Shown here: in pieces, positions 1 through 36,879 of the stretch
Layout of the letters: each line of letters begins with the position of its first letter
Numbering within the stretch: position 1 is the stretch's first letter
IMG/VR virus record: IMGVR_UViG_2563366955_000016
Length of the DNA: 41,253 nt
Source: a virus
Lineage: Duplodnaviria > Heunggongvirae > Uroviricota > Caudoviricetes
Reading direction: 5' to 3' (one strand)
Notes under the pieces: generated by a model
Told to the model about the DNA's origin: nothing
Databases searched by the model: none
The model's input: only the letters and a program-made list of their open reading frames with translations
Position numbers and translations under genes: made by a program

Positions 1-585
1 TTACATTGTGTCTGGTTCTTCCGGCCACTCAATATCAGGTGCAGTTGATGTATCAACACGGTTCAGCAACACCCGATACTTCTTCCAGGCCGCCAGCAAC
101 GAGTTTTCTTCCTCCGTTGCGATCTCCAGATCTACAGCATCCTGAAGCGGCGCTATATGCTCACTGGCTACCTGCATCAGGCTGTTTTTTGTTTCTTCCG
201 CCTCCCGGATCCGGAACAGTTTTTCTGCTTCTGCATCTTTCACCCAGGCTGTGCCGTTCCACTTCTGATATTCCCCTTCCGGTGACAACCAGGTGACATT
301 TTCCGGTAACGGACCGAGTTCAGAAATAAATAACGCGTCGCCGGAAGCCACGTCATAAACCGTTTTACCCCGATGATCTTCAACGAGATGCCACGATGAC
401 TCATCACTGTTGAAAACAGCCACAAAGCCAGCAGGAATATCTGGTGGTGCAATATCGGTACTGTTTGCTGGCAGACCTGTATGAGGCGGAATATATGCGT
501 CACCTTCACCAATAAATTCATTAGTTCCGACCAGCAGATTATAAATTTTTATGGTCCGTGGTTGTTCACTCATTCTGAATGCCAT
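1..585 (-). CDS. tail fiber assembly protein (Tfa-like), 194 aa
   Basis: Complete ORF (stop at 1-3) immediately downstream of the side tail fiber gene with ATGA-type overlap at 585; position and size match lambda-type Tfa. Confidence 0.75.
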
Positions 586-3500
586 TATGCAAGCCTCACA
601 ATATAGTTAAATGCGATGTTTTTGACGGTGTTTTCCGCATTACCAGCAGCGTTAACGGTGATGGTGTGTCCATGTGAACCAATCGCAACGGAGTGCGTAT
701 GAGCACCAATACCGACAGTATGCGCGTGTGCACCTGCAGATGCTGCTGTGCCGGACAGTGAGTGGCTATGATTACCATCTGTACTGGTATTAGCTAACCA
801 CCCCGTAGACATACCTACTGAACCTTGTACACCCCAGGTATTTTGACCTGAGCTTGTATAACCATATTGATAAGTATCTTTAAAAACACTGGGGTTAAAT
901 CGACGGCCATCTCTATGGCTGTGATTACCAGCTGCATTCGTGCTGCCACTTAAACTATGAGTATGCGCACCAGTGTTATTCGTGGATTTAGTGCCGTAAT
1001 CAAACGATGATGTGGTTTTCGTACCCAAATCCGTACTGGATACGCTGGCGCTGTGGGTGTGCGATTTAATGCCGTCCTGTTCCTGAGACAATACGGCACG
1101 ACCACTGGCGGGCTTGCCCTTAATCGTCCAGCCACGCATATCAGGGATCACGCCTGACGGATAAGCGGCCGCAAGTTTCGGGTAAGCAGATTTGTCAAAA
1201 GTCTGCCCCTGCATCAGGGCATAACCAGACGGAACGGTATCTGATGGCCACGGGATTGGTGCGCCGACTGGGTAGCTTTCTGGTGGAAGATTTTTCGAGG
1301 TATAAACTTCTGCCCAGTCTTCCTCAAAACCATAACCGTCTCTTGAAGAACGGTAGAACAGACCACCATTTCTGTAATGCGCCTTCATCTGCAAGGTCCG
1401 GCAACTTCCGACTCCGGTATAGAAGTTAACCAGAATATAGCTGTCGCCAGAGCGGGTGACATTATAAGCGCCTGATTCGGCATTCCAGGGAACGCCACCA
1501 TCCGCATCGGCATATGTATCCGTTGCCCTTCTGGCAAAAGCAGCCACATGCGCGGCGGTTAAAGTAATATCTTTGGAACCATCAAACTCAACACCAGAAA
1601 CCCGTCTTGGCGTTTGCAGCTTTGTTGCTGTTAATGCATTACCGTTCAGACTTGCGGACAGTTTGGTTCCAATAACCAGTTCGCCGGTTGCGTTATCAAT
1701 AGCAAACGGTCTTAATGTATTCCAGCCACCATAAACATCACCTTGATTGGTAAGCAGCAGGTAAGTTTTAGCGCCATCATTACGCCATAATGCCCCATAC
1801 TCCCCACCTATCATTCGAATCTGATTACCACCACGCGCTACAATTTCGTCTGTGGCAAAAAGTTTTTTGCACGACAAGTTATCGTTAACGATTAACGAAT
1901 GAGACTCATAAAAACCACGCCCACTCTTAAAATCAAGGATAACGTCCGCCGCGATACATTCAGTCGCCGGATTTGTTGCCCCAAACTTATAGGTCGTATC
2001 ATTAACAACGAGATCAGCACCAGGTGCGGATATTGACAGGCCATCTTCGATAAACGCAAAAACAGGGAAAGCAGCGCCATCAACATAGAACACAGAGCGC
2101 AAATCATCGCCCTTATTACTCATCATTATTGAGTGGATGGCTCGTTCATTGTTTTGATATTGCCAGAACATTCCATAAGCATAACGCCCCCTGTCAGTCC
2201 AGCCACCAGGCATAACAAATCCGTTAAACTCGCAGTTATTCATCGGATCGCCTGCGGTTCGCGTTGCCGTGGTGATAATGACCCTTGATGCCAGTTCGCT
2301 TACTGAGCCAGCAGAACGCATAACAACAACAGGGTAATATTTTCCAGATGTTGCACCTGCAGGAGCGTTAACCCGCACATAACGCATACCACGCTTATCA
2401 GCAAAGTCTGTTTTACTGACCGCGTTAATGTTGTTCAGGAAGCGTCCCTTATCGGGTATATCAGCGCCGTTCTGGTCTTTCTGCAGACGTTTCTCTGCAT
2501 TGTCATAGGCTGATTTTACTGCCTTTGGCGTTGCCGCCAGCGTTTCAGACGTACTGTTGGTCGCACTGCTGAGCTGTACTATCCCCTTTTTCGTCGTACT
2601 TGCATCCTCAAGCGCCACGGCGGATGCAATATCCTCTGCCCGTTTTGCCGCTGTCTCGGCGCGCGTTGCCGCGGATTCTGCCGTACTTTTGCTCTGTGCT
2701 GCCGCCGTCGCACTGCCAGCTGCCTCTGTCGCCTTCGTGGATGCTGTCGTGGCGCTGCCCTTCGCTGCGGACGCTTGTCTGGTCGCCTCATCTTTTGAAG
2801 CAGACGCCGATGATGCCGATGACGCCGCCGAACTGGCGGACGATGCGGCAGCCGTTTTTGAGGATTCTGCGCTGGTTTCCGACGCTTTCGCGTTCGTCTC
2901 GGATGTCTTCGCTGCGGAAGCAGACCTCGCTGCTGCGCTGGCCTGTTCAGTGGCTTCGCCAGCCTTCGTTGTGGCTGTTGAAGCAGACGATGCGGCACTT
3001 TCTGCCGATTTTCCGGCGGCGGTGGCACTGGCTGAGGCCTGCCCGGCACTTGTTGACGCGGCACTGGCAGACGACGCAGCCGCTGTTTTTGAGCCTGCCG
3101 CAGCCGAGGCGCTCTGTCCCGCTGCCGTTTCAGAAGACCTGGCGTTTGTCTCAGACGTCTTTGCCGCCTTCGCGGAATTGCCTGCCGCCGTTGCCGAGGA
3201 AGCGGCACTACTGGCGCTTGATGATGCGTTCGTTTCTGATGATTTCGCTGCCTCTTTTGAGGCCGCCGCATCCCGGGCTGAGGTGGCAGCTTCTGACGCT
3301 TTCGTGGTCGCGGTGGATGCTGAAGTGGCTGCTGATTGTTGTGACGCTGCCGCATTCGTTTCTGACGTTTTTGCCGTAGCGGCACTGGTGGCCGCCGCGC
3401 TTTTTGAGGACTCTGCAGCGGCAGCACTTTTTGATGCTTCAGTGGCTTTTGCTGATGCCGTTCCTGCGCTGGAAGACGCTGACTGAGCCGACGAAGCGGC

Positions 3501-3983
3501 CTGTCCGGCTGACGTGCTGGCTGCGCGTGCTGAGCCTGCAGCATCAGTCGCATGGGTTGCCGCCTCACGGGCAGATGTGCCGGCATCGCCGGCTGACTTC
3601 TTCGCGGCTGCCGTGTTCTGTGCCACTGCGGACGCGTTACGCACCACCTCTTCCACCATCAGTTCAAAACGGCGCAGTGCCTCTGGCCGGACATCATCCT
3701 CCGTCATTGCACCGAGGAAATCATTCAGTGTGCCCGGCTTTGAGTCCTCATATACGGTGATAATCCCGGCGTGTGACGGCGGGAATCCCTCCACCAACAG
3801 ACTGACGCTGTACTGACCATACTCGACGTCCATTGTGTAACGCCCGGCTTCATCCGGGTTTTCTGAGGCCACTGTGTTCACCACCACCGTGGTGCTGTTG
3901 CGCCTGGCCTTTAGCTGAATGGTGCAGTTTTGTATCGGCTTACCTGCGCCATCTTTCAGTACACCTGAAATCCTTACTGCCAT
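585..3983 (-). CDS. side tail fiber protein (Stf-like), 1132 aa
   Basis: N-terminus [28 protein letters not shown] resembles lambdoid Stf; long Ala/Ser/Thr-rich low-complexity central repeats; C-terminal His-rich HxH repeats typical of fiber tips. Confidence 0.85.
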
Positions 3984-26013: not shown

Positions 26014-26088
<75 letters not shown>

Positions 26089-26091
26089 ATA

Positions 26092-26167
<76 letters not shown>

Positions 26168-26169
26168 AC

Positions 26170-26246
26170 TGGACCGCCACCGGGGACTCGAACCTCGCAC
26201 ACTCAACTTAAAGGGTTGACGCTCTTTCCTGATGAGCTAGTGGCGG
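26170..26246 (-). tRNA. tRNA-like gene with non-canonical anticodon loop CCUUUAA (UUU at positions 34-36, C at 33); isotype uncertain
   Basis: Perfect 7-bp acceptor (CCGCCAC/GTGGCGG) with C1:G72, D-arm, perfect anticodon stem TCAAC/GTTGA, T-loop TTCGAGT, encoded CCA; C33 and a T-stem A:C mismatch are atypical. Confidence 0.5.
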
Positions 26247-26247
26247 C

Positions 26248-26323
26248 TGGTGGCCCTTGCTGGATTTGAACCAGCGACCTGGCGATTATGAGTCGCTCGC
26301 TCTCACCACTGAGCTAAAGGGCC
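26248..26323 (-). tRNA. tRNA with CAU anticodon, ileX-like (tRNA-Ile2, lysidine) or elongator Met
   Basis: Hand-folded cloverleaf: GGCCCTT acceptor, anticodon loop CTCATAA, T-loop TTCAAAT, encoded CCA; close to the E. coli ileX sequence as I recall it. Confidence 0.75.
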
Positions 26324-29737: not shown

Positions 29738-29893
29738 TTACTCCTCAGGTTCGTAAGCTGTGAAGACAGCGACCTCCGTCTGGCCGGTTCGGATTCGTAC
29801 CTCGCAGAGGTCTTTCCTCGTTACCAGTGCCGTCACAATGACGGTTAAACAGATGACGATCAGGGCGATTAACATCGCCTTTTGCTGCTTCAT
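29738..29893 (-). CDS. hokD: Hok/Gef-family type I toxin (HokD/RelF-like), 51 aa
   Basis: MKQQKAMLIALIVICLTVIVTALVTRKDLCEVRIRTGQTEVAVFTAYEPEE: single TM helix plus conserved C-terminal Hok motif; AAGGAG RBS upstream; track ORF 29738..29950 has an in-frame upstream extension. Confidence 0.85.
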   Translation of the reverse strand: MKQQKAMLIALIVICLTVIVTALVTRKDLCEVRIRTGQTEVAVFTAYEPEE

Positions 29894-30815
29894 AGCCTGC
29901 TTCTCCTTGCCTTTCGGCACGTAAGAGGCTAACCTAGATTTGCCGTTCATAGATTGAGCCTCAGATTAATGTTAAGCGTCTTGCAGGACGCGTAATGTTA
30001 ACTGGGGCTTTTCTCTATCTGCCTTTGGTGTTCATGCCTGAGGCAGATAGCCTCAAGCACCCGCAGCAATTCTACTTAACTCACGTCACCTCGCCAATAT
30101 AAAATCAATCAGAAAGGCGATCCATAAGAACAACAGCAAGGCAATAAATTGCCATTACAGCAGCAATAGCCAGCGCACATTTGAGAACCAGCACCACAAC
30201 CTCCTGTATTGGACGTACACCAGTCCTGATAAATATGAGGCTGTCTCGTCAGTGATTCAATACAACTATTGGGTATAGTTTCTGTGATTTTGTTCTGTAG
30301 AAATGGAACACAACAACCAGTCACCACCAGCACTTCTTTAAATACGCCAAGTCCGACGCAAGCTAACTTTCTAGTCCGCTTTGAGCGAAAAGCAGACTGT
30401 CACGCGTTGAAGTTAATTGTATTACTTAGATAAACACTATCATTTTCCTGACGTTAAGTTGTATCTTTGATAGGATTAAAAAACGTATAGATAGCTTATG
30501 CTACTGAGGGAATAAAAATGACGAAAATTAGTGAACGATGGAAGCACAATGGCATTACTGAAGGTTATTGCAATATTTGTGGGAAATATGGTTTGCTCAC
30601 AAAAGATCATGTTCCTCCAAAGTGCGCCATAACCTTAGGCCCTGTTTTGCAGAAAACAGTTAGCGAATTTTTTGGTATTCAGGAACCAGTTAAACCATTA
30701 AATGCTAAAAATGGCTCTTATTTCAGAACCATTTGCAGCCACTGTAACAATAAGGTATTAGGTGGGCTCGATGTTGCAATTGAAAATGTAACAAAGTCCT
30801 TTAAAGAACAGTTAA

Positions 30816-32010
<1,195 letters not shown>

Positions 32011-32672: not shown

Positions 32673-33095
32673 TCACTTCAATAAATACCGAACATCCCCC
32701 TGATAAAACGACAATATGCGCTGCATAACTTCACTCTTCCGGCACTCGCGACAGATTATGTTCTGACGCCTGTCGTAGCGACGTATTTCTCCGTCAGGTA
32801 ATGACCAGATAAGGTCCGGATCAACCGCAGATGGTTTCTTCAGCTTTGCCCTTGAGAGCTTTTTACGGGCATTTTGCCAGTCCTTACGCGCCTGTTCAGA
32901 CGGGAATAACCCGTAACCAGAGTTGTATACATCGCCGCTGGCAACCAGCTCTCTTGCGAGAACGCTCATCAGATATCTTGTCGCACCTGTTTTGACTTCC
33001 AGTTGCCGTAACGTCTCACGTCCACTCTGGCGTACGAGTTCAACAACCTGCCCTTTAATTTTTTCTCGCTCTTCTTGTGTAAAAACTTTTGCCAC
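32673..33095 (-). CDS. hypothetical protein downstream of the replication gene, 140 aa
   Basis: ORF in the position of a P-like replication partner but too small and lacking Walker motifs. Confidence 0.4.
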   Translation of the reverse strand: MAKVFTQEEREKIKGQVVELVRQSGRETLRQLEVKTGATRYLMSVLARELVASGDVYNSGYGLFPSEQARKDWQNARKKLSRAKLKKPSAVDPDLIWSLPDGEIRRYDRRQNIICRECRKSEVMQRILSFYQGDVRYLLK

Positions 33096-33135: not shown

Positions 33136-34212
33136 TTACCCCCTGAAGCCCGGTGGAATTTCGGTATCCGGTTCAGAAATATGATTCACACAACGCTGGT
33201 TGTTCGTGCCGCTTACCGGGAGCAGCCAGGGGTTTTCAAAATTCCGGTCCGGTCCAAAAAACGTCGTCGCTCGCTGAACAAATTCCGTTCCCGTTTTCCC
33301 GGTAGCCGCAAGGTATCTTGCGTAACGCCTCACGCCATCCAGCATGGCCTCTGGTGACACCCCCTCGCGTAATCTGGCCTTCCAGGCACTGAAAGCGGAT
33401 TTCTTCGGGTTTGCCCCAGCACGCAACGGGTATTCCCGCCAGACCTGTTCGAACACATCCGGATAATCCACTCGTCCCACAGGCTGCCCGGTGTTTTCCG
33501 GGACTACCCGATCGGCTTCCCGCTGAATGGCGGAATCGGCTTCAGGCTGCTGCAGTTGGTGTGATTGCTCCGGCCTTGCGGTCATCACCTGCTGCACAGC
33601 GCCCGAATCGGCTTTCAGCGCATACGCTGAATCGGCTTCCGGTGTCGTGCCTGCTGGCTGACCAAGATTGACGGTCTGAACATCCCCTGCCTGGTTCGTG
33701 GCGTTTTTTACGCCATGGACCATAGTGTTTTGATCTTCTTGATCTGTATCTTTATCTGTATCTTTATCTGTCGTGACTCGTCGTGACATGTGCGTGACAT
33801 TTCGTGACGCGCCGTGACAATCGCCATTTTGTTCCCGCTTTCTTTCCCTCTCTCGCTGCGCCCTCTTGCGCTCTGCAGGAGATTTTGCGGTTTGCGAAAT
33901 ATTGCCGTTGTCCTCTTTAAGCACCTGGCGTTTTTCCCATCCAGTGATTAAATCACCATCAAGTACCCGCCCCTGCATCGTCTGCAAAATTGAATCAATT
34001 ACCTCTTCTGTCACGTCGAGCGCACTTGCCAAATCTTCTGTCGTGACATCAATGTGACCTCGCGTGACATTTCGTGACGCGCTCACCAAGAGGTGGATAT
34101 ACACTGCCATCACTGTTGCAATTGGCTGCCCTGACACCCTGGCAATTGTTCGCCACTTAGGGTCATTTGGCATGTCATGCCATAATCTGAGCCAAGCGTT
34201 AGCCATACTCAC
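33136..34212 (-). CDS. replication initiation protein (O-like replisome organizer), 358 aa
   Basis: Position downstream of cro/cII-like genes; N-terminal WLRLWHDMPNDPKWRTIA region; two iteron clusters inside the gene. Confidence 0.6.
   Translation of the reverse strand: MSMANAWLRLWHDMPNDPKWRTIARVSGQPIATVMAVYIHLLVSASRNVTRGHIDVTTEDLASALDVTEEVIDSILQTMQGRVLDGDLITGWEKRQVLKEDNGNISQTAKSPAERKRAQRERERKREQNGDCHGASRNVTHMSRRVTTDKDTDKDTDQEDQNTMVHGVKNATNQAGDVQTVNLGQPAGTTPEADSAYALKADSGAVQQVMTARPEQSHQLQQPEADSAIQREADRVVPENTGQPVGRVDYPDVFEQVWREYPLRAGANPKKSAFSAWKARLREGVSPEAMLDGVRRYARYLAATGKTGTEFVQRATTFFGPDRNFENPWLLPVSGTNNQRCVNHISEPDTEIPPGFRG
33741..33820. repeat. putative replication origin: five CGTGAC iterons at about 10-bp spacing plus adjacent 12-bp tandem repeat
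   Basis: CGTGAC at 33772, 33782, 33793, 33803, 33813; ATCTGTATCTTT repeated about 2.5 times at 33741-33770. Confidence 0.6.
34042..34082. repeat. second iteron cluster: four (C/T)GTGAC copies at about 10-bp spacing
   Basis: Copies at 34042, 34052, 34063, 34073; 20-mer CGTGACATTTCGTGACGCGC is identical to 33793-33812. Confidence 0.55.
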
Positions 34213-36826: not shown

Positions 36827-36879
36827 TTTCTGGTGACGTTTGGCGGTATCAGTTTTACTCCGTGACTGCTCTGCCGCCA
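36827..36879 (+). ncRNA. dicF: DicF small regulatory RNA
   Basis: UUUCUGGUGACGUUUGGCGGUAUCAGUUUUACUCCGUGACUGCUCUGCCGCC followed by a U-run matches the DicF sequence as I recall it; sits between ydfC and dicB. Confidence 0.8.

Follow-up and report, generated by a model that had tools for sequence, protein, structure and literature searches.

Does the replication gene of a lambdoid prophage contain the origin at which its own product acts, and why would the same short repeat be placed in that gene twice? This question was raised by a stretch of 41,253 nucleotides (nt) from a virus of the Caudoviricetes (IMG/VR record IMGVR_UViG_2563366955_000016), the whole of which is referred to here as the window. 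An earlier note, made from the sequence alone, had drawn attention to two clusters of a hexamer within an 'O-like' replication gene and had suggested an internal origin. The gene is located on the minus strand at 33136-34206 and encodes 356 amino acids (aa) from an ATG at 34206, which is the start used in the annotation of phage Tritos; the open reading frame (ORF) list places the start at a GTG at 34212. The suggestion was supported by sequence comparison, on the grounds of conservation, co-variation, frozen codons, and a lambda-like layout: the segment 33692-34078 is probably (about 80%) the replication origin of a lambdoid prophage, situated inside the gene of its own initiator, which would bind there.

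The first cluster, designated array B, is located mid-gene (aa 130-145 of 356) at 33772-33818 on the minus strand. The hexamer CGTGAC starts on the plus strand at 33772, 33782, 33793, 33803, and 33813 (spacing 10/11/10/10), which, read along the gene, gives five direct GTCACG iterons spaced 10/10/11/10 bp apart (nt 389-435 of the gene). A 10-bp array was reported at 33770-33819 by Tandem Repeats Finder, in agreement with these exact starts and with the approximately 10-bp phasing described earlier. The second cluster, array A (34042-34078, minus strand; gene nt 129-165), is located about 230 bp upstream of array B in the winged-helix coding sequence and encodes aa 43-56, where helix 1 ends and the loop leading to helix 2 follows. 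Its copies at gene nt 129, 139, 149, and 160 read GTCACG, GTCACG, GTCACa, and GTCACG on that strand; exact copies start on the plus strand at 34042, 34063, and 34073, and the remaining one of the 'four more' copies previously counted is a variant (TGTGAC, 34053). An inverted copy that the note had missed is present at 34010-34015 (plus strand, GTCACG; gene nt 192-197; codons D64-V65-T66), 32 nt beyond array A along the gene. The identical 20-mer that had been noticed in both clusters, CGTGACATTTCGTGACGCGC, was found only at 33793 and 34063, once per array, and the peptide ASRNVT is indeed encoded twice in the same reading frame (aa 43-48 and aa 133-138). Because the hexamer copies fall in all three frames (ASR/VT/GH/VT in array A and CH/SR/VT/SR/VT in array B), the repeat is a feature of the DNA and the peptide repeat only its by-product.

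Window-wide, the hexamer was not enriched (24 found, 18.9 expected), yet 9 of the 24 copies fall within 310 bp. Apart from these arrays, a single run of at least three copies of any one hexamer at 9-12 bp spacing was found in the window, namely the adjacent 12-mer described below. Against the 5 observed, 41-kb sequences simulated 300 times from a first-order Markov model had a longest run of 2 in 289 cases and of 3 in the other 11. The repeat arrays are real and non-random.

Array B is abutted by an AT-rich tract at 33724-33771 (gene nt 436-483; 29% GC versus 54% for the gene), which is proposed as a DNA unwinding element. The tract holds three tandem 12-mers, TCTTTATCTGTA (33737-33771; 2.9 copies with 95% matches according to Tandem Repeats Finder), and two GATC sites (33732 and 33741). 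The 12-bp tandem repeat had been described as flanking the repeats; this is correct for array B, whereas array A has no AT-rich neighbour, and the two clusters are not equivalent. Directly downstream of the tract in the gene direction is a palindrome at 33692-33722 (gene nt 485-515), for which a scan allowing G-T pairs gave a 13-pair stem and a DNA fold gave a core stem of 6 bp, extended by a further 4 bp, and an A/T loop of 5 nt. The order on the gene strand is thus array A, inverted copy, codons of a basic helix, array B, AT-rich tract, and palindrome, and the last three together span aa 130-172 of 356. Matches to oriC-type 13-mers were discounted, since the AT-rich tract held a single match with 2 mismatches (33741) and the window-wide count did not exceed chance. 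Internal promoters and terminators were likewise set aside because their counts in the region were not above those of shuffled sequence, the sole 'terminator' being the palindrome. An Rfam search returned no match in the origin region.

The earlier note had proposed a comparison with related prophage replication genes. A scan of viral contigs yielded 80 E. coli prophage copies, all identical and hence uninformative about diversity; a species-level scan with one genome per species provided 80 loci, of which 76 were usable. In 56 of the 76 loci, zones A and B each contained two or more copies of a shared hexamer (three or more in 40), compared with 2/76 and 4/76 for control zones of equal size. 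Homologues from E. coli, Aeromonas, Pseudomonas, Bordetella, Ralstonia, and others keep both arrays at matching positions in the gene; the lack of conservation in homologous replication genes that, according to the note, would refute the idea was not observed. In Aeromonas phage pAEv1818 and Pseudomonas phage phi1 (N-terminal domains approximately 70% identical), GTCACG is kept at both places, and array B consists of three and four copies, respectively, each time followed by GATAAAGATA-like A-rich DNA; the phi1 protein has a different C-terminal domain and retains both arrays. The copy number of array B was 3-5 in close homologues (loci L003, L004, and L088), where it always abuts the AT-rich tract, and an A/purine-rich tract directly followed the last iteron in every locus displayed, whatever the iteron type.

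The iteron itself differs among homologues. The classes observed were GTCACG, CGAACG(C), GTAACG, GTGACG, and GCAACG, all of which end in ACG, and between subfamilies the hexamer always changed in both arrays together. Among distant homologues, for example, CGAACGC occupies both arrays of a Manatee Spring podovirus (L005), and GCAACG both arrays of Ralstonia phage Hennie (L006). Between the sister groups with GCAACG and GTGACG, the same two bases differ in all five copies of array A and in all three to five copies of array B, with forced amino-acid changes of A to V and N to D. Array A also varies in length: that of E. albertii (L088) carries a 21-nt in-frame insertion equal to two iterons and 7 codons, the loop differs by whole iterons in L088, L119, L130, and the L006-type loci, and other members have 6-22 extra residues in this loop.

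Synonymous codon usage was compared in 21 GTCACG-type genes from different species. The normalised synonymous entropy at codons of conserved residues was 0.15 inside array A and 0.84 outside it (Mann-Whitney p=7e-7). The codons of array A are frozen at V47 (GTC, 21/21), T48 (ACG, 21/21), G50 (GGT, 21/21), H51 (CAC, 20/20), and V54 (GTC, 21/21), and only the codon of R49, the third base of which falls between two hexamers, is relaxed. At the inverted copy, V65 is GTG in 19/19 GTCACG-type homologues with valine at that position; not every iteron class has this copy, and the CGAACGC class lacks it. Both arrays show conservation, sequence co-variation, and selection at the DNA level.

The part of the protein that follows the iteron was sought by comparing classes. 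In the winged helix proper (aa 1-100), the GTCACG and CGAACGC classes were strongly separated only at aa 45-56 and 65-67, which are encoded by array A and the inverted copy, and weakly at aa 31, 42, and 100. The recognition helix H3 was rejected as the specificity determinant since it contained no class-discriminating columns, and the same applied to the wing. The basic helix encoded at 33850-33873 on the minus strand (ERKRAQRE, aa 112-119) behaved differently: across 63 loci, positions 3 and 6 of the motif x-R-3-x-x-6-R-E co-varied with iteron class. K/Q was found at these positions in 26/27 GTCAC loci, including the distant members L157 (41% identity) and L123, both of which have array B only. 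GAACG loci have A, S, or G at position 3 and W at position 6 in 18/21; GTAAC loci have V with Y or F; GTGAC loci have T with Y in 4/4, on two different backbones; and GCAAC loci have S with H or R. K114 and Q117 of the basic helix are therefore proposed as the residues that would read the iteron in the window protein.

A mosaic locus was also found on a metagenome-assembled genome (MAG) contig of the Gammaproteobacteria (JAOUGF010000598.1, L113). Outside the loop, its protein is 82% identical to a GTCACG-class protein, which is as close as GTCACG-class members are among themselves, and its loop and basic helix, together with both arrays of the locus, belong to the CGAACGC class; it looks like a captured switch of specificity that needed several coordinated patches. 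The loop encoded by array A was weakened as sole determinant by two loci with array B only, L157 (GTCACG) and L160 (CGAACG), which have similar loops and different iterons, the basic helix tracking the iteron type. There is thus indirect but specific evidence for binding of these repeats by the initiator, for the basic helix as its reading head, and for a requirement that array A match array B. A further idea, rather improbable on present comparisons, is that array A may encode part of its own reader, the winged-helix loop at aa 43-56 with the invariant R49-G50. If this loop touches DNA, an iteron change that gene conversion carried from one array to the other would by itself alter the protein that reads it. 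Origin specificity could then switch in one step, and site and reader would be kept together through phage recombination; the dual layout described next would reflect a general principle.

Dual arrays were also found in an unrelated family of initiator N-terminal domains (MR(N/D)Y..SP.FW; no Pfam match), represented by loci L002 and L167-L170 and including Shiga toxin (Stx) phage 75/02 (L002; gene at locus 2501-3589, minus strand), Klebsiella, Acinetobacter, and Ralstonia phages, and E. coli phage Fraca. In these genes AAGGGGCTT occurs twice in the part encoding the N-terminal domain (nt ~185/196) and two to three times in the linker (nt ~440-465), where a (GAACAG)n tract comes next. In the Klebsiella phage and Fraca the linker array points the same way as the N-domain array, and in 75/02 and the Acinetobacter and Ralstonia phages it is inverted, so that the peptide changes completely while the DNA motif stays. 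Judged from these sequences, the dual layout recurs independently. The 75/02 gene combines another N-terminal domain and other repeats with a C-terminal part that it shares with the window gene from the palindrome onward, and its palindrome is kept, the loop-closing pair having undergone a compensatory exchange of T:A for A:T. Because the common module appears to start at the palindrome, the recombination junction between specificity and C-terminal modules seems to lie in the AT-rich tract. Farther along, the gene strand of the window contains four copies of GAAGCCGAT(TC) within 33511-33546 and 33607-33642, at spacings of 24 and 96 nt. They encode PEADS, KADS, PEADS, and READR, their spacings are multiples of 3, and PEADS occurs twice in the 75/02 protein; they could represent a short linker peptide motif or a further DNA site.

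Iterons and an AT-rich tract are located in the middle of gene O in lambda and Stx phages (PMC7466680). The window resembles ori-lambda in that the origin would lie inside the initiator gene, in linker DNA between an N-terminal origin-binding and a C-terminal recruiting domain, and in that the gene follows cro and a cII-like gene. Lambda O was read directly, and its four annotated iterons, A-rich tract, and inverted repeat have the same order (PMC7466680). The origin reading is supported because this order, placed in a disordered linker, parallels that of lambda. The note had also stated that the repeat unit differs from that of lambda and that the array is duplicated, and both points held: lambda iterons (ATCCCTCAAAACGAGGGA) are approximately 18-19 bp with an internal dyad, whereas the window units are 10-11 bp with a 6-bp core and no internal dyad, and the N-terminal coding part of lambda O contains no iteron-like sequence, whereas the window family has its second array there. 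Unlike lambda, the window has no P-like loader gene after the initiator. The designation 'O-like' is appropriate by position and logic and not by sequence, as no match to the lambda O family (PF04492, Phage_rep_O) was obtained for the window protein or any of 65 homologues.

In the proposed mechanism, initiator monomers would sit on the iterons in head-to-tail order along a single face of the DNA, the basic helix reading the variable first three bases of NNNACG. Array B would be the core binding array, on which an oligomer would melt the adjacent AT-rich tract, and the DnaT/DnaD-like C-terminal part would recruit the host helicase. Array A may serve as a second landing site for the same initiator and cooperate with array B, either by looping or wrapping of the approximately 230 bp between them or by raising the local initiator concentration and capturing nascent initiator in cis. 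It would thereby help origin function without being indispensable.

Several observations weigh against this interpretation. Approximately 20 of the 76 loci, about a quarter, had no shared repeat in zone A, and about 10 of these had clear linker iterons only. Since some homologous loci lack the repeat, array A is not essential for origin firing in general, and the dual layout is widespread and not obligatory. Helical phasing between the arrays was weakly non-random (R=0.35) in samples that are not independent and was not used as evidence. The co-variation of helix and iteron is partly confounded by phylogeny and by physical linkage, the helix being encoded 30-60 bp upstream of array B. Literature searches located no paper on this initiator family, including its binding, unwinding, or replication. 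Finally, no helicase-loader gene follows the initiator in the window, where a DUF977/Ren-like gene is present instead (32673-33095), and the prophage may be defective, given an IS5 element about 1.3 kb downstream of the initiator.

Whether array A helps or restrains the origin can be stated with much lower confidence than the origin reading itself. A possible role, although not the favored one, is negative control, in which initiator bound at array A blocks transcription of its own gene (autoregulation) or is titrated or handcuffed there, array B and the AT-rich tract still being the origin. In iteron plasmids, auxiliary iterons and inverted repeats limit firing or autoregulate, and inverted iteron copies are typical operator sites. 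Such a role would suit the position of array A at 129 nt into the gene, the inverted copy 32 nt on, whose synonymous position is frozen too, the lack of an AT-rich neighbour, and the dispensability of the array in some lineages, as for a regulatory add-on. The absence of the inverted copy from the CGAACGC class argues against it, and the sequence data fit cooperation equally well; the proposal agrees with all the co-variation data and concerns another role for array A and is not an alternative to the origin. It is improbable that array A has no function and is only a source or gene-conversion partner of array B, kept alike by recurrent conversion. The identical 20-mer in the same frame, the whole-iteron change in copy number (as in the 21-nt insertion of L088), and the lineages without array A would be explained in this way, but the codons of array A are invariant in 21 lineages in which other synonymous sites are nearly randomised. 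Conversion would also have to recur in every lineage and would not keep position and copy number so exactly, and selection on the layout is suggested by the 75/02-type family, which shows the same dual arrangement with its linker array in one or the other orientation.

Binding of the hexamers by another protein, such as a CII/YdaT-like activator, Cro, or a host factor controlling an internal or antisense promoter, is very improbable. Lambda CII, which binds 10-bp-spaced direct repeats inside coding DNA, provides a precedent, and one weak promoter-like match (33794-33821, plus strand, 9/12) overlaps array B; as noted above, such matches were no more frequent than in shuffled sequence. GTCACG arrays occur together with quite different upstream genes in Pseudomonas phage phi1, Aeromonas phage pAEv1818, and E. 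coli, and the iteron type tracks residues of the initiator itself. A host factor does not fit because related hosts differ in iteron (GTAACG in Enterobacter and Pantoea; GTCACG in E. coli and Erwinia), and no DnaA box with at most 1 mismatch was found in the gene. The notion that the repeats merely reflect a repeated, VT-rich peptide, with no role for the DNA, draws on the double occurrence of ASRNVT and was rejected as scarcely credible. Successive copies, being 10-11 bp apart, fall in different frames, the hexamer persists where amino acids vary and synonymous sites are frozen, array B encodes a disordered linker, and the linker array of some 75/02-type members is inverted and encodes a completely different peptide. 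The preferred reading remains that of an origin bound by its own initiator at array B, with array A as an auxiliary site.

Other phages place repeats within the replication gene as well. Different repeats are located inside gene 18 of P22 and phage L, the latter with six 11-bp repeats (PMC8022706), and in SPP1 oriL lies within gene 38, where its direct repeats, adjacent to an AT-rich unwinding element, are bound by G38P, which also binds a distant oriR (PMC6316719). The window shares with SPP1 direct repeats together with an AT-rich element in the organiser's own gene and two sets of binding sites, putative in the window, for one initiator; its protein is weakly similar over the full length of the Phage_rep_org_N models, and homologues are named 'phage replisome organizer' by NCBI. 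In contrast to the window, where array A is 230 bp away in the coding sequence of the DNA-binding domain, oriR is about 13 kb away, non-coding, and equipped with its own AT-rich element, and the similarity of the window protein is below the family thresholds (E=0.13 and 0.016). Membership of the window protein in the replisome-organiser family is therefore doubtful. A single initiator with two direct-repeat clusters, one at the unwinding site and one auxiliary, is also found in P1 (incC/incA) and P4 (ori/crr). The auxiliary clusters of iteron plasmids and P4 are intergenic or kilobases away, whereas array A is in coding DNA, and we know of no such system in which the auxiliary cluster overlaps the coding sequence of the initiator DNA-binding domain.

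The AlphaFold2 (AF2) model of the initiator showed a confident N-terminal domain with helices at 29-45, 56-63, and 67-77 and a hairpin at 78-87, which together form a winged helix (aa ~4-95), followed by the basic helix (110-127), disorder from about 131 to 240, and a helical C-terminal domain. According to this layout, array B and the AT-rich tract encode a disordered linker and array A part of a folded domain; the N-terminal domain is predicted to be a DnaD-like winged helix. The protein matched phrog_3729 ('replication initiation protein') end to end, and phrog_1701 ('DnaD-like helicase loader') spanned aa 124-358. No Pfam family was assigned at E<=0.01, and at E<=10 only HTH_Crp_2, PhyR_sigma2, and Phage_rep_org_N were listed, all under their cut-offs. 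The matches to PF09681 (E=0.13, 12.7 bits, cut-off 23.3; aligned over 1-118 of 121 model positions) and TIGR01714 (E=0.016, 15.4 bits, cut-off 49.8; 1-119 of 119) were weak, and at E<=0.01 neither model was found in any of the 65 homologues, none of which had a Pfam N-terminal domain. The C-terminal 24 aa resemble the tail of DnaT, as only aa 335-358 matched the last 24 model positions of NF002770 (DnaT; E=0.0015, 18 bits versus a cut-off of 201), and the DnaT domain PF17948 was absent from the window protein and detected in 15/65 homologues (best E=4.6e-17). Neither the sequence nor the fold placed the protein among Rep_3 or RepA WH1-WH2 (iteron-plasmid Rep) proteins. A sequence search of the PDB returned no match, and a Foldseek search against the PDB returned only winged helix-turn-helix matches at E>0.6. 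In two further loci, L131 (a Serratia MAG) and L151 (Pantoea), the N-terminal domain is followed by a segment that resembles a GIY-YIG nuclease motif by eye (YYVY..., VGIS.NPW.R), without the basic helix and iterons, and no periodic repeats were found in either.

The initiator gene has a P22-type cro and a YdaT/CII-like gene upstream, faces an S24 repressor gene, and has the DUF977/Ren-like gene mentioned above downstream. An IS5 transposase ORF (30848-31864) is located about 0.8 kb past the latter. Elsewhere, the gene after a homologue is a DnaC-like, DnaB, or primase-helicase gene, and the prophage of the window may rely on host loaders or be defective. Rfam matches elsewhere in the window are typical lambdoid prophage cargo and comprised DicF small RNA (36828-36879, plus strand), sok antitoxin RNA (29888-30062, minus strand), four transfer RNA genes (26017-26323, minus strand), and IS009 RNA (44-242, minus strand).

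The N-terminal domain and origin segment were present in 2078 of 5426 complete E. coli genomes (38%). In a dozen sampled E. coli records the protein was labelled 'hypothetical protein', 'phage replisome organizer protein', or 'DnaT-like', and the N-domain family, with about 2200 representatives at 50% identity, has no Pfam model; this very common prophage replicon is therefore effectively uncharacterised. Many public entries for the E. coli protein (P0002-P0038) are 'partial' and on short contigs, which would fit assemblies that break in or near a multi-copy prophage gene.

An origin inside the initiator gene is an already known design. Literature searches revealed no description of a second array in the coding sequence of the DNA-binding domain, of its frozen codons, or of the correspondence between helix and iteron. 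The comparative data predict where the origin is located, which three iteron bases are read by which two initiator residues, and that array A is selected as DNA. With its frozen codons and a loop that grows by whole iterons, array A provides a clear natural example of constraint imposed on a folded domain by a cis-acting site, and since the layout recurs in an unrelated initiator family, phage origins may follow a general design rule. The iteron classes should define replicon incompatibility or exclusion groups among co-resident prophages, and they could guide the building of compatible phage-derived vectors.

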